Shown here in pieces: positions 8,695 to 61,559 of a DNA stretch of 64,000 nt. Origin of the DNA: a phage; the sequence record OZ346189.1. The stretch is one strand, 5' to 3'. Numbering within the stretch: position 1 is the stretch's first letter; each line of letters opens with the position of its first letter. The position numbers and the translations under genes are program-made. The notes beneath the pieces are model-generated. The model was not told the DNA's origin. It did no database searches and was given only the letters and a program-made list of their open reading frames with translations.

Positions 8695-10749
8695 ATGCTT
8701 CCAATCCCTTTGCTAAAACTTGGTCGTCATTTCCTCGATAAGAGGGGTGGAATTAAGGAACTTGCTGTTCTGTCATACCCAATAGACAACAGTGATGGTA
8801 CAAGCAACACAGTATCCTATGTAAATAGCTTAGCTATACTTTTTGATGATGGTCAGCTTAATATTACTGGCTATAATAGGTTCGGAGAGTGTCGGACTGG
8901 AGATCTTGATACAATAAACTATCCTAATGAGGCAGCTTGGAACGTAGACCATGTTTGGAGAGCTGACCGTGCATTTGTAATCCGCACATTCGATAATAAA
9001 TTTTTCTATATTGGTTGCACAGCTGGTCTTATCGGATCGGAGGCAGCAGGTGGAAACGATGTTTGTGTCAGAGAGTGGACACCTTTGCCGGAACAGATCG
9101 TAACAGGGTTGCATTTGGACACCCATCCTGAGAGACTTGTTGAAGTAATGGGTGGCGTAAACAATACAGTGTGGGTAATTGCTGCACCAGAGGCTGATGG
9201 TATGCTTCACCTGTACGGCTCTGGCAATAATACTTACGGCTCTCTTCATGTTGACAAAAGTCAACACGCTACTCCAGTTAAGATCGGTGAAACATCTGAA
9301 AGTCCAGAGACAGGTCCTTGGAAAAATCCAAGAATTAATTGTGAAGTTCATGACAACTCGGTTATTTTTGGTGGTCCTAACGGATTCTGGATTGCAGGTT
9401 ACGATTTCTTAAGAAATAACAGCAAAAACACACTAGTTTATCCAGCCGAGCATGTGACTCTTGACCAGTTTAAAGGCATCCCGGTGGGCGAGACATGGAA
9501 AGGGTTCATGTGTGGACCTAATGGTGCAATTATAGCCACAGAAAGGATGCACAAACCTGATGACCAGCAGCTTGTTAACGTATTCTACGGGCAAGACGTC
9601 TGGGGAGATGACACATGGCGTTCCTTAAATATCACCTACACCCATGAGGTGATAATGGCTCGTGGATACGGCACAAGTGGCATTTTCTTCAATAATGGCA
9701 CTAAACAGTATCGTGGATTCTCTCGCAACTTGTGTAATGATATTGGTGCACAATCTGCAAACAATAGCCCTAGGGCTAATTTTATCCACTATCAGGCTCT
9801 TGCTACAGCTAAATATGTTGAGCAACGCCTGCCAGTTAGCTGGACAGAGAGTGTTTATTTCCAAGGCATCCACAGGGAAGGTTTCTTAGGAACCTTTACT
9901 GTTGTTAATGGCAAACTTTGGTGGTCAGGCATCCCAAGGGGGAGTTTTGCAGGATCTAACAACCTCTTTGGCGGCAGACTTAACAGCCAAGGGTTCACAG
10001 AGATTCCGGAGAATTGGTATAAAAATGTCCCGGTAGATAGCTGGGGTATCGAAGACATCTTTGATGTCAATGGTGTGAGCAATGTTAGCAACATTTACAT
10101 CGGAGATACTGTCAAGATGAAATTGAAACCTCAGCCGGAGGGTGCTACGTTCATTATTGACAAGATTGAGTTGGTAAATGCTGCAGGCACTGTTGTTACA
10201 GATGCAAACTATCAGTTCTCCACTAACTGGAACCATGGTGGTGCTAACGAAGTTGTGGTCACCCAGTATAACCGTAACATCAACAGACGTGGTTTGTATT
10301 CTATCAAGATCACCTACCATGACAAGCATGGCACTGGAAGAACCTATACGACAAGAACTTTGAACTGGAACACTATAGTTCCTGCGTACCCGTCCAACGG
10401 CAAGTGGCATACCGTTGGTAGAAACAAGCAGTTCCATGTTAACGATACTGTATACTTTGGGCTGAATGGGACCCAGCCTGCAGTAGAAGGGGATACATCG
10501 TATATGGTCAGACTCCACAGAATGGATGCTGGATCAGTCACTTATGATGTGACCCAAGAGATCTACGATCAAAGACGTGCCACGTATGACAATATTGTAA
10601 AAACACAAGCCTTGTGGGAGTTCAATCCTAATGGCAAGGGTGGTAAAATGTTGCAGGTTAATGAGCAGAACGGAACGTCGTTGACTGTTCACGAACACCC
10701 AGACCCTTGGCCTGATCCTGGAAACCTCACCCGGGAGCTCGTACACTGA
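8695..10749 (+). CDS. hypothetical structural protein
   Basis: 684-aa ORF in the late module, RBS tctggagaacacaATG. Confidence 0.5.
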   Translation: MLPIPLLKLGRHFLDKRGGIKELAVLSYPIDNSDGTSNTVSYVNSLAILFDDGQLNITGYNRFGECRTGDLDTINYPNEAAWNVDHVWRADRAFVIRTFDNKFFYIGCTAGLIGSEAAGGNDVCVREWTPLPEQIVTGLHLDTHPERLVEVMGGVNNTVWVIAAPEADGMLHLYGSGNNTYGSLHVDKSQHATPVKIGETSESPETGPWKNPRINCEVHDNSVIFGGPNGFWIAGYDFLRNNSKNTLVYPAEHVTLDQFKGIPVGETWKGFMCGPNGAIIATERMHKPDDQQLVNVFYGQDVWGDDTWRSLNITYTHEVIMARGYGTSGIFFNNGTKQYRGFSRNLCNDIGAQSANNSPRANFIHYQALATAKYVEQRLPVSWTESVYFQGIHREGFLGTFTVVNGKLWWSGIPRGSFAGSNNLFGGRLNSQGFTEIPENWYKNVPVDSWGIEDIFDVNGVSNVSNIYIGDTVKMKLKPQPEGATFIIDKIELVNAAGTVVTDANYQFSTNWNHGGANEVVVTQYNRNINRRGLYSIKITYHDKHGTGRTYTTRTLNWNTIVPAYPSNGKWHTVGRNKQFHVNDTVYFGLNGTQPAVEGDTSYMVRLHRMDAGSVTYDVTQEIYDQRRATYDNIVKTQALWEFNPNGKGGKMLQVNEQNGTSLTVHEHPDPWPDPGNLTRELVH

Positions 10750-10910
10750 AAATTGTCAGCCATGATGCAGGATATTTCGGAATACGCTGGGAAGCTACAG
10801 TAAGATATGTCGACGGGACAACAAACAACATAGGGATTACACTTGGCGGCACTAGTGAAGATAACTCGCTGAAAATTGCCTACACGCCCAGAGGTATCTC
10901 TATTGATAGT

Positions 10911-13900
10911 ATGGATGTTGTTCGCAATGGCTACGGCGATGTGAATGTCAAAGTTACTCTTGGCGAACATCTTGGTGGGGAAAGGATCATCATGTATGCC
11001 TTTGATCATGATCCACGCACCAATGGAACTTATGCAAATCAGGCATGGAGTTACCTGATAAATGCACCTGAGCCGAATACTAAAGAGTTCTACTATGGTA
11101 TGAAGCGAGATGTGTGCAAGAAAACAGGAACACATGACTGGATTGCTATCTGCGTTAAAGATGAGCGCACAGCTTGGGATGAGCCTGTTAACAGATGGTT
11201 CATAGGTATTCCTACCAGAAGTGATAAGTATGTCGCAGAATATATTGTATGCATGGGCGGTACCAACCTAAACATGTGTTGGAACGAAGATGTAAACAAA
11301 TACTCTGATTATGACTATATGAGGGATTACTCTTGTAATTTGTGGTTTAACCAAACTACAGGTTACCCTCCAAGACAGGCGAGAGTAAACCCTGCAATCT
11401 TCACAGACACGCAGGTTTTCTTGACAAAACAGGCCAACGAGGTTCAGACCTTCAAGAATAAATACGATCCTAACAAGTGGTTCTACAACTGTTACGGCGC
11501 ATTTTTCTGGGGACCTGGTGAGTTACCTGGTGGGGGATCTTGCTTGAATGAGGCAACTTACGCAAGTGACTACATCATGGGGCAGGTCAAGAAGTATAAG
11601 ATAATCCCCGGTCCTGAGACTTTGGGCAATGCCGTTGACCCTTATATCATCATGACTGCACTGAGATCAAACATGGATGGGACATCCATGTCCATGCAAA
11701 TTCCGGTAACAAGCGGATACAAACGTGTTGTGATGATCATTAAGTGCGACCTGATAGGTAAACAAGTTCTTGCAGAAAACGGGACATCCACACATCCTTT
11801 TGAGATCGCTCTGCACTATCAGTTTGCTGACTCACCTTTTGCAGGGGATAAGAGAATATCTGATACAGACGCACAGCGTTGTAAGAAAGTATTGTTGGGT
11901 GCAGGTTGGTGGTGGTATGAGTTTGATTTAACAGACAAATTCACCGACACGTCTAAAGTTGTAACAGGACTTCGTCTAGACCTTGGCGAGAACATGCACA
12001 AAGCTGTTTGTGATGGCACCTATGGTGACCCTACAATATACCTAAAATATGTTTCTTTTGAGCATCCGGAAGATGTTGTCTACGGTCCAAAACTGAGATT
12101 GTTTGGCAGCTGGATTGCAAAAGATAGGGTAGGCATGGGTAAGAAGGTAAGAGGGCTCTTGGTTGATGCAGGAACAGAAGACATGCTGGTTAATGCAGTG
12201 TGGCCTGAATTACCTGGGACTCAGTGGGACAACTCAGCCAAATCTATAAACTGGTTTAACATTCATAGGGCCATGTGGACCACTAACTGCTACTTGTGGA
12301 GAGAGCTTAACGATCAGGCCTTTGGATTCAGCGATGGTAGAAGGATGGCGATCATTTGCTGGACAACACTGCAAAGATGTTATGACCATGACTATGAGAT
12401 TGGGGGCAGGGCATGGAAAAATATCAGGGATAGAATCATAACCAATTTTGCAGACGACAACGGTGGTGGAGCACATAACTTTGGCACAAGCCGACTCATC
12501 CATTTGAACGGATCCTCAGCCTACAAGAAAGAAGGTTACTCTGGGTCTATGATCGAGTGGGGTCTGGTGAAAGATGCTCGCGTATTGATGGGCCAGCAAC
12601 TTGCTGCCGCAATAGGTCCCAGCGCAGTGCAGTCGGTTAAACCAGCGTGGTTCGATATTCCATTGTGGTCACCCGGAACACCGGGAACTGCTGCAATCAA
12701 CCCTACCACTGGGGATCTAGAAATCTCCTGGGAGGACTTGAAGCAGGTCGGTGGTTGGGACAAAACAGGGTACCAGGTTCAGTGGTGGAGAGCTGATGGA
12801 TCTTTAGCTGCTGATGAGTTTGTTAAGGACAATTTCTACACTATGTCCTCTGCAAAAGCACAGCAATTATTTGGTCAGGCAACTCCGTCAACGATCACCA
12901 TGTCTATGTGCTGTAAAGACAACAGGACTGGAGCTTTGGGGCCAAGGGTTGCTAAAGTTTTCTCAGGTATTAAATGGAATCTACCTGTCCAAAGTATTTC
13001 ATGGAAGCAAATAGGTGATAACAAGCTGCTGGTTACCCCTGCCTGTCAGTTCAACGCAACTCTTAACGTTGATCCTGCTGTTGCGGCAAACTCAGCTAAA
13101 GCTTCTGACTTCTCTGTGTCTAACACTGCTATGGCAGATGTGAGGAAGATTGACACACTGAACGCCAGAATTACCTGTAAAAACACTTATGGCACATTCC
13201 AAATCATCAACAACTTCACAGATGCTGATTCTAAGGTAGTAAGGACAGCAAGCCAGACTCTGAGTTTAGGGACTCTGGCCTATGCGGCCCTGATCACCGA
13301 ACAGTCGGCAACACTCCAAGGAGGCGGTGTAGGCAAGTCCATTGCAACACCTGTGTGGAAGCCAAATGAGTGGGTTGTGTTTGATTTGACTGTGGACTTC
13401 TCCAGCGATAATAACTGGACATGGGTAAGGAATTGTTTGTCACAATTGATGGGCGGTCCAAGCTCCGTTAGTGATAGTCACGACTCTACTGACCCGAGTG
13501 TGTTCCAGGTAGGTAAAACTCACCCAGAGACTGGAGAAACGTTGCCTGACAGGAAGTATGCGTTGGTTTGCATCTCTTACGGGAAGGCAGATGTCACATT
13601 CTCAGGGACACACACTTATAACGGAACTTACAACTTCTCAAGGAAGTATAGTCTCAAAGCAGGGAACATTATAGACGAGGTCGGTGTGCTGTATAATCCG
13701 GGCAACGGCATAGGGATTGTGGGCGGTAAACTGCAGATGCAGGAACCTTCTATCACCCCTTCCAACGTATCCGGGATTAGAAAGACTTGGGAAAGTAGTA
13801 ATACCAACATTGCAACAGTGGATGCCACCACAGGGCTGGTAACATTTAAAGCTACTGGGAATGTCACCATAAAGTTTGTAGTTAGAGATGATGCAGGCCG

Positions 13901-48118: not shown

Positions 48119-48444
48119 CAGAGATCATCATTTCAACTGCAGGGTATGTGTTCCTGACAATCATTGCACTGACCATTTTGGTGGTGGTATATGGAATTGT
48201 TATTCTCCCTATTCTTGAGACAATTAGTTTGTGTCGGTGTTGGAGAAAGGCTTACGGTCCACAGCCGTGGAAGGACTGGCCCCACCTGGTGCACATAGCG
48301 TTCTCTTATGCTTATGATCACGCCAGCAGTGCATGCATAACCGGGTATCACGCCCACAACTGGAGCTGGGAAGGGTTGAGGAAATGGAATGTTACAAAGA
48401 CCATACCTCTGCGCATGTACAAACCTAAAAACAAAGACAGCTGA
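48115..48444 (+). CDS. small membrane protein
   Basis: 109 aa with hydrophobic N-terminal helix (YVFLTIIALTILVVVYGIVILPIL). Confidence 0.45.
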   Translation: MTEIIISTAGYVFLTIIALTILVVVYGIVILPILETISLCRCWRKAYGPQPWKDWPHLVHIAFSYAYDHASSACITGYHAHNWSWEGLRKWNVTKTIPLRMYKPKNKDS

Positions 48445-48473
48445 TACTTGAAAATCCCTGGCATATCAAGTGT

Positions 48474-48510
48474 AAGGAGGATTTCTAAAATGGATTTCCT
48501 CCTTTTGATA
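48474..48510 (+). terminator. terminator-like hairpin
   Basis: aaggagg / cctcctt inverted repeat followed by ttgatattt. Confidence 0.35.
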
Positions 48511-49047
48511 TTTCACCGGGCCAGATATTTTAAAATTCTTAGAAAATCAGAAAATGGATCGAAAACTAAAATGGATTTTTCAAGACAGGCACGATAAGAT
48601 GTGCTGCTCATTCTATCGTTCGCACCGTACTTTAAGTCACTATTCCAGATTTTTCCGCACATACTCTCACCCTTCTACCAGAACTTTCCCAGCTTACCTC
48701 TGACCTTTTATAACAATAAGTCCATTATTATCAGAAAGTTTCGGCACATCTCTTTCGGTACTCGATCTGTTTTTCATTTCAAAGACCTGATTTTCTGAAA
48801 ATTTTTCTCGATAAATTTCTTAGTACTCGATCTGTTTTTCGTTTTCTGAATCGGATTTTCTGGAAATCGTTCCAGCCCTCGACCTGAAATTTTTGGGGAC
48901 GAAATCGATTTTTCGTTTTCAGAAATGGATTTTTAAAATTTCTATATGGGAATATTTTATGGGATACTGTTTTATAGGAAATTGTTACGGAGGGTAATTA
49001 GCATGCTAATTAAATTTATTAAATGCGAGGAGTTCTCATTTAGAATT

Positions 49048-49066
49048 TTGAATGATAATCATTCTC
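49048..49066. promoter_or_regulatory. Fur-box-like palindrome 1
   Basis: ttgAATGATAATCATTcTC: 12-nt core ATGATAATCATT identical to the Fur consensus GATAATGATAATCATTATC core, about 15/19 overall. Confidence 0.35.
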
Positions 49067-49140
49067 GTTTGCAGAATAACGGGCAGGCCCGGTGATTGTC
49101 TCCCGGCCCCTGTTGCCCCGGCTTGTTATTATAGTATCAC
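49049..49140. repeat. direct repeat unit R1
   Basis: aatgataat..ttctcgtttgcag...tgattgtctccc shared with R2. Confidence 0.4.
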
Positions 49141-49178
49141 ACAGGACAAAGAAAGCAAGGATTTTTTGCATAAATTTT

Positions 49179-49280
49179 TAAATGATAATGATAACCGTTC
49201 TCATTTTATGCAGCGCCCATCCCCGGTGGTTGTCTCCCCCGTCACCGGTGCCTGCCGTCCTTTCGATAGGTATATTGTGC
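49179..49280. repeat. direct repeat unit R2
   Basis: aatgataatgataaccgttctcattttatgcag...ggttgtctccc, imperfect copy of R1. Confidence 0.4.
49184..49202. promoter_or_regulatory. Fur-box-like palindrome 2
   Basis: GATAATGATAAcCgTTcTC: about 16/19 to the Fur consensus. Confidence 0.35.
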
Positions 49281-49640
49281 CACCTGGCGGGGCCGCTGTC
49301 AACACTTCTTCAAAAATTTTTTCTAACATAATGCACCAACCGCTGCAACCTGGCGGGGCCAGCCTGGCAGGACCTGACTGACCAGGTAGGAGAGAGTGAA
49401 AACTTGCAAACCTGGTAGGCCTATGCTACAGGGCAGGTAACAATTGAAGAGGAGGTACAAAAATGAAAAGTAATATAATCCCCTGGAAAATGTAGCGATC
49501 AACGCCGCTGAAGTTATCACCCTGGTTGAAAAGGCTATGGCGGGAGCGTTGGAACATAAAGAAGAGTACGAAAAATGATGGTTAACCTGGCAGGGGCGGC
49601 GGCTGGAGAATTCTTCCCAAAAAATAATTCTAACTAATGG

Positions 49641-49668
49641 TTGACAGCTCGGAGAGTTCTGTTATTCT
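49641..49668 (+). promoter_or_regulatory. sigma70-like promoter
   Basis: ttgaca-N16-tattct about 55 nt upstream of 49722. Confidence 0.5.
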
Positions 49669-49721
49669 TATCCTCGCAAGGTGAACAACACCACACTAAT
49701 TAACAGAGAGGATAAAAAATC

Positions 49722-49919
49722 ATGAACGCCTACGGAATTAAAGTACGTCGCAACACTCACCAGGCCGTCACCGATCAAATGGTTTGCCAGGTGGACGTAA
49801 CCATCAACAACGGGCAAGGCCTTTATAAATTCCGTCGCGGTCAGAGCTATACCCGGCAACAGCTTAATCGTTGCGCCCTGACAAAAGGCCAGATCAACCA
49901 CTGGTTTAATAAAAAATAA
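49722..49919 (+). CDS. small basic protein
   Basis: 65 aa, RBS agagaggat. Confidence 0.45.
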   Translation: MNAYGIKVRRNTHQAVTDQMVCQVDVTINNGQGLYKFRRGQSYTRQQLNRCALTKGQINHWFNKK

Positions 49920-58135: not shown

Positions 58136-58138
58136 CCA

Positions 58139-58273
58139 TGAGAAAGATAATTATTACCATGGGGATCGTGGCGGCAATGTTGGCGATCTTTCCCTTTATG
58201 GTTAGGTATGTGCTGATTAATGTTGTCCTGGTAGTCAGCGATCTGGTGTTATATATTAACTCATTGTTTTAGG
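58139..58273 (+). CDS. small hydrophobic peptide (44 aa)
   Basis: below track cut-off; two hydrophobic stretches. Confidence 0.3.
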
Positions 58274-60160: not shown

Positions 60161-60180
60161 TTTTTTAACTGAATTATCAA

Positions 60181-60204
60181 GGGGCTTAGGCCCCTTTCTT
60201 TTTG
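60181..60204 (+). terminator. rho-independent terminator closing the rightward small-gene array
   Basis: ggggcttaggcccc followed by tttctttttg. Confidence 0.6.
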
Positions 60205-60589
60205 TCTGCTCTTCCTCCTACCACAAACGGCCCAGCCTGGCAAGTGGAATAATTGACTAGCCATCAATCCCACACACTGTACAAATATACATGGAAAATA
60301 ACTATTGCATAATTTTTCATTGTGTGGTAGCAGGTCCATTTTTACCCGTTTTCTCTCTCAAAATTGCACGTAATGCCGCTATTGCACAAAATTTAACCTG
60401 ATGCACATCTTCAATATCTTGTCAACAACTAAAAATCTTTATAAGTCATACACTTACACACTCACAAAAGCGTGTTCTACGTGAAAAATCGAGTATAACT
60501 ATAGCCGCCAGATCTCAGAATTTACAAAGGCCATCATTAAAGCTTCAGTAAAATCAGTCATTCCTCACCTCTTGTTAGTCACTATACTA

Positions 60590-60853
60590 TCATTTATCCT
60601 TGTCGTCAAGAACTTTTTTAAATCTTTCAGGGATATCTCCCGTTCTTAGATAGTTCATGACCTCGCAAGGTTCCCACTTGAATTTCTTACAGAGCAGGGC
60701 GGCTGAGATTGTTTCATTGCGAAAAGAAAGGATATTAATATCCCACTCTGAGAACCCCAACTTCCGAAGGGTAGCTACAGAAATCCTCACCGCAACCCAG
60801 CAGCAAAAACATGCAACAAACGCCACTGCTACAACCCACATCAGGATGTTCAT
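60590..60853 (-). CDS. small membrane protein
   Basis: 87 aa with N-terminal hydrophobic helix ILMWVVAVAFVACFCCWVAV. Confidence 0.45.
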   Translation of the reverse strand: MNILMWVVAVAFVACFCCWVAVRISVATLRKLGFSEWDINILSFRNETISAALLCKKFKWEPCEVMNYLRTGDIPERFKKVLDDKDK

Positions 60854-60942
60854 ATAAGCACCTTACTGAAATACAAGACACAGTGTTAAGGTTACTGACC
60901 AGCAAATAATTAACAGTGCCGTTGCAACCTTGGCAAGATTTA

Positions 60943-61230
60943 TCATAGTGCCTCTAAGATTTCATATCCTTCGGGTCGGAATACAAGCCACTCCGTGGCT
61001 CCGTTTGGTCGATACGCTTTATACAGAACAACCTGGTCTCGGCACATGCACATGGCTACATAGTTTTCATCCACACCTGCAGCCTGCATTGCATCTTCTT
61101 CTCCGGCAACTGCTTTGCTTACAACTTCCTTGGTAGGCAGGTGTGCGATCAGCTCGTCACCATCATTAATTCCAAAATGGCTGAGTTCGCCGTTGGTATC
61201 TTTAATCTTAATCTTAACCAGATCTTTCAT
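60943..61230 (-). CDS. small acidic protein, paralogue family 1
   Basis: 95 aa; MKDLVKIKIK N-terminus, C-terminus PEGYEILEAL. Confidence 0.45.
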   Translation of the reverse strand: MKDLVKIKIKDTNGELSHFGINDGDELIAHLPTKEVVSKAVAGEEDAMQAAGVDENYVAMCMCRDQVVLYKAYRPNGATEWLVFRPEGYEILEAL

Positions 61231-61559
61231 TAGTCTTCCCCCAGGTTCAAAGGTCCTAAGATTTCATATGCCAGATTAGAAGTTACAAGAGGGTCTTCTG
61301 CGTCTTTAGTATTATACCACCCGTGAATAACCAGAGTCCCACTTTGTTTCATGTCCAACTGGAACTCTTCTGCCGTTTCCTCATCCAGCTCCAAGATTTC
61401 CATAAGGTATTTGATGTTAGGGAGGTATGCAGCTGTTACAGTCCCCTCTACCAGACCTTCAGGCCAACCTACATCTGGATGACAAGTAGGAACCAGATTG
61501 GTCAGCTTAATGGTGTACGCTTTTTCTGCACGAGCCTTCAGTAACGGGTCAATCTTCAT
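61230..61559 (-). CDS. small acidic protein, paralogue family 1
   Basis: 109 aa; translationally coupled with neighbours. Confidence 0.45.
   Translation of the reverse strand: MKIDPLLKARAEKAYTIKLTNLVPTCHPDVGWPEGLVEGTVTAAYLPNIKYLMEILELDEETAEEFQLDMKQSGTLVIHGWYNTKDAEDPLVTSNLAYEILGPLNLGED

Follow-up and report, generated by a model that had tools for sequence, protein, structure and literature searches.

Introduction

The injection stop signal (iss) of bacteriophage T5 is an untranslated, repeat-dense stretch of ~1 kb that is better conserved than nearby genes and contains paired DnaA boxes, two 66-bp DRE repeats and nine DRD repeats (bioRxiv 10.1101/866236). Neither Fur nor LexA is mentioned in that comparative paper of 2020. 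In the T5 record NC_005859, the annotated iss lies at 9140-10149 of 121,750 bp (7.5-8.3% of the genome), and a halt of DNA transfer has been demonstrated for T5 only. Fur-regulated promoters are also known already; for example, the fhuA promoter of Escherichia coli is Fur-repressed. In the literature that we searched, Fur boxes were reported neither for virulent phages nor for the regions considered here, and the only phage-borne Fur box belonged to the prophage cargo sitABCD (PMC6969025).

Here, we analyzed positions 48445-49721 of a 64,000-nucleotide (nt) stretch of DNA, hereafter the window, from phage OZ346189.1, which was identified as a Vequintavirus (rV5-like E. coli myophage). A first-pass annotation had described this segment, hereafter the hub, as 1.3 kb of non-coding DNA with iterated motifs, and had proposed a replication origin, a regulatory centre or a packaging site. 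We found that the hub holds conserved promoters on both strands together with palindromes that are, at the level of sequence, host Fur boxes, which supports the proposal of a regulatory centre. That the hub, which borders a terminal block of small early genes on its inner side, has Fur-gated promoter control as its core function appears to us about evenly balanced between true and false. With respect to the searched literature, the new observations are that the principal non-coding region of a virulent phage subfamily is built around a conserved core of Fur boxes and that such boxes also occur inside the T5 iss.

Non-coding nature and conservation of the hub

The hub matched 122 phage records at 87-95% identity, almost all of them from Vequintavirus. 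For comparison within the genus, the window was aligned with 12 relatives (13 genomes in all), and the within-genus figures given below refer to this set. Variable sites in the flanking genes showed a strong third-position bias (20/11/49, 4/6/15 and 8/4/48 by codon position), and the single flanking gene that could be scored was intact in all 13 genomes. Thirteen candidate open reading frames (ORFs) inside the hub were intact in 0-7 of the genomes and had no codon-position bias, which confirmed the earlier view that this 1.3-kb stretch does not encode proteins. The exception in terms of intactness was an ORF of 43 codons on the minus strand (49040-49171), which lies within the most conserved DNA and was open in 13 out of 13 genomes. 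It also lacked codon-position bias (5/4/3) and a ribosome-binding site, contained a promoter, and other genera did not retain its start (in PVP-SE1, a comparable peptide frame begins with a different, non-conserved ATG); judging from the sequences, its openness is treated here as a by-product of conservation at the DNA level. The 'hypothetical proteins' placed in the region by GenBank records were inconsistent between records, representing different ORFs on different strands.

Conservation along the hub was uneven. A conserved block at 48465-48564 (0.96) was followed by a variable one at 48565-48764, and then by a core at 48765-49264 that was conserved at 0.93-0.99 with zero gaps, on average slightly better than the flanking genes. 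The remaining part (49265-49714), which is rich in CCTGG motifs, was variable, indel-rich and the least conserved. The G+C content in 200-nt windows was ~32-40% in the 5' half, 50-56% in the repeat modules and near 46% thereafter, in agreement with the AT-rich 5' half and GC-richer 3' half noted before. A blastn search with 48740-49130 matched 265 records from Vequintavirinae, Phapecoctavirus and one Aeromonas Plateaulakevirus. Segment 49015-49129 was detectable in Seunavirus, Mydovirus, Certrevirus, Henunavirus, Avunavirus, Phapecoctavirus and the Aeromonas Plateaulakevirus, and no nucleotide match to the query was found in those genera outside this segment. The architecture of the hub recurs across the Vequintavirinae genera examined. 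It should be noted that sixteen GenBank records with MG0656xx accessions ('Campylobacter phage A142, C12, D1 ...') were ~90% identical to this region, which suggests mislabelled hosts or contaminants.

Fur boxes and predicted opposed promoters in two modules

The conserved core contains two modules of ~135 bp (spacing 134-136 bp), each of which holds a Fur box, a 13-mer and a leftward sigma70-type promoter. Their repeat cores, 49051-49104 and 49187-49238, are identical at 41 of 49 aligned bases (local alignment score 36 versus 15.0 +/- 2.3 for shuffled sequences). Thus, the two direct repeats of ~90 bp noticed on the first pass are real, but their core is shorter (52-54 nt), diverged and embedded in the larger modules. 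The elements of the modules are as follows.

49022-49040: weak Fur-like box 1a, AATGCGAGGAGTTCTCATT, 4 mismatches to the 19-mer
49048-49077, + strand: rightward sigma70-type promoter P(+), TTGAAT, 18-nt spacer, CAGAAT, predicted start near 49084
49051-49069: Fur box 1b, AATGATAATCATTCTCGTT, 1 mismatch to AATGAKAATnATTMTCATT
49090-49102: 13-mer CGGTGATTGTCTC, invariant, with a second copy CGGTGGTTGTCTC at 49224-49236
49131-49158, - strand: leftward sigma70-type promoter P(-)1, TTGCTT, 16-nt spacer, TGnTACTAT, predicted start near 49124
49181-49205: Fur box 2, overlapping AATGATAATGATAACCGTT (49181-49199, 3 mismatches) and AATGATAACCGTTCTCATT (49187-49205, 2 mismatches)
49274-49302, - strand: leftward promoter P(-)2 of module 2, TTGACA, 17-nt spacer, CACAAT, extended TG, 10/12

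The Fur consensus used here has 9-nt arms, AATGAnAAT and ATTnTCATT, around one central base (classical form, GATAATGATAATCATTATC), and the inverted repeats at 49051-49069 and 49187-49205 agree with it at 1 and 2 mismatches, respectively. Variation of box 1b was confined to its degenerate centre base, and the position of the weak box 1a holds full boxes in other genera. Across phages, the element appears as one to four tandem copies of a 19-bp palindrome with the consensus AATGAGAATCATTCTCATT. The fhuA promoter of E. coli K-12 (...TATAATAATCATTCTCGTTTAC...) has 16 consecutive bases identical to window 49054-49069; this identity is too short for BLAST (a search of E. coli genomes with 49020-49270 gave no match) and was therefore found by direct reading of the promoter. 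When bacteria were scanned with the pattern AATGAKAATCATTMTCATT, using one genome per species, at least 120 loci were found in Bacillota, Beta- and Gammaproteobacteria, cyanobacteria and others. All four K/M variants were present among the matches listed (TA, 48; GA, 32; TC, 25; GC, which is the phage type, 16). Ten genes beside the phage-type variant, again among the matches listed, included three TonB-dependent receptors, one FTR1 iron permease, one lysine/ornithine N-monooxygenase, one ZnuA-type binding protein and one SBP_bac_8 solute-binding protein, so that seven out of ten were related to metal or iron uptake, siderophores or solute binding. Considering the 16-nt identity with fhuA, the occurrence in many bacterial phyla and the location mostly beside iron- or metal-uptake genes, the palindrome in the Vequintavirinae hub was recognized as a host Fur box at the sequence level. 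An additional Fur-like match at 58137-58161 falls at the start of a small ORF and probably arose by chance.

Box 1b fills the spacer of P(+) and hence overlaps the -35/-10 region of this predicted promoter. The P(+) hexamers were invariant, and TTGAAT-18-CAGAAT/TAGAAT was also observed in LNA4, FENT2, ABPH49, PVP-SE1, PcCB7V, Hena1 and Av-05. The hexamers of P(-)1 were read directly from the window sequence and compared across the 13 genomes; its predicted start faces that of P(+) from ~40 bp away, and the resulting overlap of ~40 bp holds CGGTGATTGTCTC. In nine other phages, the Fur box is followed after 58-64 nt by a leftward promoter with a score of 8-10 out of 12, its hexamers being kept while the spacers diverge (the null rate for a score of at least 9 anywhere in 150 nt was 0.18). 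In P(-)2, the -35 was invariant and the -10 variants retained A2 and T6. A third leftward promoter that would share its -10 with P(+) (GAGACA-18-TATTCT) scored 8/12, equal to the null mean, and is mentioned as an idea only. RNAalifold gave no consensus structure for the 13-mer block on 18 diverse copies, and covariation that had been read there by hand was accordingly dropped.

Fur-type elements were also observed in other viral DNA. Mydovirus-like contigs L038 (4973-5050), L019 (4326-4400) and L029 (minus strand, ~2439) carry extra modules of the form 'Fur-like box, CAGAAT, AGCGGGCAcc, CGGTGA' several kb from the main hub. IMG/VR phage contigs L014/L042, L020, L025 and L041 contain 2-4 tandem near-perfect Fur boxes; in L014 two strong tandem promoters are each followed within a few bases by a Fur box, and in L020 three identical 30-bp units precede consensus promoters. 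In addition, a block of ~90 nt (ACCGGCGATCCACCTTCCGACCTGGCACCCGCGCCCGGTACGTTAGCCCCGCC...) downstream of the Fur module is conserved in Seunavirus, Mydovirus and Henunavirus (L006 3160-3260; also L005, L007, L008, L012, L019 and L021) and absent from Vequintavirus. It is apparently transcribed leftward from a second conserved promoter and had no Rfam match.

Iterons and other features of the hub

The modules are preceded by three iterons and surrounded by several further features.

48458-48524, + strand: compound hairpin, inner stem AAGGAGGA/TCCTCCTT, then a U-rich tract, just past the last upstream gene
48488-48576, + strand: short repeats, AAATGGAT at 48488, 48552 and 48569, GATATTT at 48507 and 48524
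48590-48750: spacer of variable sequence, rich in C on the + strand; its conservation (0.83-0.88) is the lowest in the 5' half
48758-48960, + strand: three iterons, spaced 65 and 74 bp apart, with starts at 48758, 48823 and 48897
48996-49011: perfect palindrome of 16 bp, AATTAGCATGCTAATT, separating the iterons from the Fur modules
49283-49620: CCTGG-rich variable stretch, 7 CCTGG, indel-rich, partly deleted in Murica, naswa and slur16
49641-49668, + strand: sigma70 promoter, TTGACA, 16-nt spacer, TATTCT, extended TG, for the first downstream early gene (49722-49919)

Read along the + strand, the order is a putative terminator, short repeats with a skewed spacer, three iterons, the palindrome, two Fur modules, the CCTGG stretch and the downstream promoter.

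Each iteron unit comprises a CTCGATC-NN-TTTTTC core ... ATCGTATTT ... GAAAAAATTTTT with an A-tract/T-tract junction. The cores were near-invariant, and the DNA around them has a G+C content of 32-36%. Eight other Vequintavirinae phages also have exactly three repeats of ~62-67 nt at this position ahead of their Fur modules, with the following spacings (bp).

LNA4 and FENT2: 76/67
ABPH49: 68/65
PVP-SE1: 75/67
Ro1: 74/67
PcCB7V: 78/63
Hena1: 76/69
Av-05: 75/67

The repeats at the Phapecoctavirus locus differ from these iterons, and no iterons were detected at the locus of the Aeromonas phage. The short motifs reported earlier for the AT-rich half are parts of this three-copy family (47-65-nt repeats from 48758, 48823 and 48897). 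Most of the counts could be reproduced: AAATGGAT occurs four times (48488, 48552, 48569 and 48923) with no other copy in the window, compared with a mean of 0.07 expected from first-order Markov simulations of the region, and CTCGATCTGTTTTTC (48761 and 48826) and TTTCGTTTTC (48837 and 48911) occur twice each. GGATTTTCTG, which had also been counted twice, is present in one exact copy at 48853, the other (tGATTTTCTG at 48787) being one base off. CCTGG occurs eight times on the + strand, seven of them in 49283-49586, and the density of CCWGG was 22.8 per kb in 49270-49620 versus 2.1 per kb in the whole window. Overall, the motifs are real and occur far more often than expected by chance, and the iterons noted on the first pass are mostly real, but the CCTGG motifs sit in the least conserved, indel-rich part. 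The idea that the CCTGG stretch is a decayed copy of small leftward genes of other genera gained no support from tblastn.

The hairpin at 48458-48524 had a predicted RNA folding energy of -27 kcal/mol (z = -3.4) and is probably the terminator of the upstream + strand genes. GATATTT and AAATNGA runs comparable to the short repeats were found ahead of the iterons in FENT2, ABPH49 and Av-05. The spacer, being C-rich on the + strand, is G-skewed (+0.42) when read from the terminus inward. In rV5, the promoter at 49641-49668 bears the annotation P195B. The genes next to the hub are small on both sides, lie on the + strand and are mostly 'hypothetical', and many of them have predicted sigma70 promoters; the earlier statement that the region separates two differently organized gene blocks is thus only weakly true, as both flanks consist of small early-type genes of the same strand. 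Ten neighbour proteins matched only PHROGs of unknown function or a phosphatase.

Genome position and comparison with the T5 iss

Physical genome ends have been described for two relatives, Gotham, with 459-bp terminal repeats and a fixed packaging start (PMC7471380), and HdK5, with 458-bp terminal redundancies (PMC6563267). The hub lies at 10690-11924 of 137,025 bp in Gotham, with the terminal repeat at position 1, and at 11144-12196 of 139,328 bp in HdK5, in both cases on the minus strand. This corresponds to 7.8-8.75% of the genome from the left physical end (7.8-8.7% in Gotham and 8.0-8.75% in HdK5). The terminal repeat of these relatives lies 10.2 kb from the hub, and all genes in between point towards the left end. 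On the basis of the mapped ends, which are 10.7-11.1 kb away from the hub in the two phages (~10.7 kb in Gotham), the suggestion of a packaging site could be discarded.

In the window, the + strand early block ends at 60340-60590, followed by genes on the minus strand (60590-61559), and the physical genome ends of relatives sit at the convergent junction equivalent to this interval. A synteny break was observed at 60521-60527: Gotham 1144-1491 matches window 60173-60521, and from 60527 onwards the window shows 100% identity to phage AlexBoehm, at a place equivalent to ~3.3 kb from the right end of relatives. Together with the lack of a terminal-repeat match, this break implies that ~4 kb around the physical terminus of relatives is absent or different here.

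Examination of the T5 iss revealed five tandem Fur-type boxes at 9552-9709, two of which had 0-1 mismatch.

9552: 2 mismatches
9587: 3 mismatches
9610: 4 mismatches
9656: AATGAGAATCATTATCATT, 0 mismatches
9691: 1 mismatch

The segment with this array was conserved in 542 T5-like records, and a perfect LexA box, CTGTATAAATATACAG, was found at 9411. From the left end inward, T5 presents the Fur array, a palindrome, DRD iterons with CGAAAAATTTTT and a G-skewed stretch (+0.63); in the same direction, the window presents the Fur modules (49270-49020), the palindrome (48996-49011), the iterons (48960-48758) and the G-skewed spacer, the junction within the iterons being A5T5 in T5. Both loci consist of ~1 kb of untranslated, conserved DNA that lies ~8% of the genome away from the left physical end, has many direct repeats and palindromes, is better conserved than the neighbouring genes, and adjoins a set of small early genes that have strong sigma70 promoters. 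As far as can be judged from this analysis, the hub resembles the T5 iss more closely than it does any proven replication origin, and it may represent the Vequintavirinae counterpart, in position and design, of the untranslated iss (Repeat Region 3) of T5. T5-iss-like mixtures of host-factor sites were also seen in two unrelated viral contigs of IMG/VR with perfect Fur-type palindromes: L017 (1219-1363) has six DnaA boxes within one mismatch, three of them exact, around two Fur boxes, and L031 (11924-12275) has two exact DnaA boxes between two Fur boxes.

Proposed function and alternative explanations

In the proposed Fur-gated promoter hub, iron-loaded host Fur bound to the boxes in vivo would shut P(+) by occlusion and would also stand in the path of leftward transcripts running into the iteron array. 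Fur occupancy, and therefore host iron status, would set which of the opposed promoters is used. The design has much in common with Fur-repressed bacterial promoters such as that of fhuA, namely a 19-bp palindromic box over a core promoter, with the 16/16-nt match, and a palindrome that flanks iron-uptake genes in many bacteria. Unlike these, the hub belongs to a virulent phage, has no iron-related gene downstream, and combines duplicated boxes with opposed promoters and iterons.

Several observations weigh against this proposal. The P(+) hexamers are mediocre (8/12), module 2 has no convincing rightward promoter, and the Fur boxes lie ~50-70 nt downstream of the predicted leftward starts, which is not the classical position for repression. 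Fur binding and transcription at the hub are deduced from sequence comparison, and no Vequintavirus transcriptome could be found in the searched literature. The parallel with T5 also has limits: it consists of position, feature order and Fur boxes, with no alignable sequence beyond the boxes. The T5 iss lies inside a terminal repeat of 10.2 kb, whereas those of the relatives of the window phage measure only 458-459 bp, and T5 has paired DnaA boxes and a LexA box, neither of which is present in the hub (LexA and IHF boxes were absent there, except for one weak IHF-like match). Iteron sequences and numbers differ as well (nine DRD repeats versus three iterons). No A1/A2/dmp-like match was detected among the ten neighbour proteins tested, of ~35 small early genes. 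Finally, the Gotham terminal repeat had no match in the window, whose own physical end was not located.

Other readings, none of which excludes the promoter hub or one another, have to be considered. A replication origin appears fairly unlikely. A phage or host initiator would then recognize the iterons, unwinding would take place in the AT-rich A-tract DNA, and replication would be activated or primed from the two tandem leftward promoters, as at the T7 primary origin or the R-loop origins of T4 and ColE1, with Fur modulating firing. This would fit the iteron array, which is kept at exactly three copies and at conserved spacing in eight more phages from across the subfamily, the combination of a direct-repeat array with A/T-tract junctions and AT-rich DNA, the two conserved promoters that point into the array and would give G-rich early transcripts, and the T7-gp4-like primase-helicase used by the phage. 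Phased direct repeats beside AT-rich bendable DNA are shared with lambda ori and plasmid iteron origins, and tandem promoters reading into an AT-rich segment with the T7 primary origin; the repeat core GATCTGTTTTTC also resembles the oriC 13-mer GATCTnTTnTTTT. However, the hub units measure 65-75 bp, compared with ~20 bp in known iteron origins, no DnaA box within one mismatch was found in 48301-49900, the cumulative GC skew rises on both sides with a local dip only and no lasting inflection, and none of the ten neighbour genes checked is a recognizable initiator. Moreover, the look-alike T5 iss is stated not to be the origin of T5, which maps near the genome centre (bioRxiv 10.1101/866236). 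For rV5, skew analysis failed to place the origin, the changes in skew following the direction of transcription (PMC3606486), which leaves room for an origin at the hub, and nothing relevant to the origin of rV5 or PVP-SE1 was found in the searched literature.

An entry checkpoint of the T5 iss type is unlikely on the present analysis. Here, entry would begin with the terminal ~10.7 kb, which holds ~35 small early genes and the sigma70 promoters belonging to them, and would be interrupted at the hub, where bound host proteins (Fur here; DnaA and Fur in T5) would join in the stop or restart. Fractional position, size class of the untranslated DNA and feature order are all alike in the two phages. 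The shear point of first-step T5 DNA was placed 'in DRE2', at ~9618 of AY587007 (bioRxiv 10.1101/866236), which, with an estimated record offset of ~+80 bp, falls in or beside the Fur array of NC_005859. In addition, sensitivity to daunorubicin is common to Vequintavirinae and T5-like phages, and in a T5-like phage the drug causes arrest once the first transfer step has taken place (bioRxiv 10.64898/2026.01.13.699316). On the other hand, two-step entry in Vequintavirinae is not reported in the searched literature, the role of Fur in T5 injection is purely putative, and the lack of a long terminal repeat, of paired DnaA boxes and of A1/A2 homologues among the ten neighbour proteins tested counts against a checkpoint too. 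Very unlikely is a function through small non-coding RNAs, in which host or phage messages would be the targets of a rightward RNA repressed by Fur and of leftward antisense RNAs with ~40 nt of overlap. The face-to-face promoters with an invariant 13-mer in their 40-bp overlap and the moderately good folding of the 5' part of the leftward transcript (z = -2.3) are compatible with it, but folding of the rightward RNA was not better than that of shuffled sequences (z = 0.3), neither start is followed by an intrinsic terminator, Rfam gave no match for the window region or nine related loci, and the 18 diverse copies mentioned above had no consensus structure. The idea that replicating genomes titrate Fur as a decoy, and so derepress host iron uptake, seems extremely improbable: although many phages carry one to four tandem high-quality boxes per genome, only 2-3 good boxes are present here, an E. 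coli cell contains thousands of Fur molecules, and the fixed placement of a box inside a promoter spacer argues for local control rather than a decoy.

Implications

It is also conceivable, although quite unlikely, that Fur-box arrays are a shared, previously unrecognized building block of phage DNA-entry checkpoints and that the Vequintavirinae hub is a functional counterpart of the iss. If so, Fur bound at ~8% of the genome, and thereby the iron status of the host, would help to pause or release DNA transfer in both phages; alternatively, it would help to time the switch from the terminal early genes to the rest of the genome. The link with T5 offers a handle on the make-up of the injection stop signal, a question that dates from the 1980s. 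Virulent rV5-like phages are widely used as candidates for therapy and biocontrol. The fact that this subfamily and T5 keep high-quality Fur sites in their most conserved non-coding DNA implies that such phages may read the iron status of their host, which would matter in the iron-poor gut and at sites of infection.

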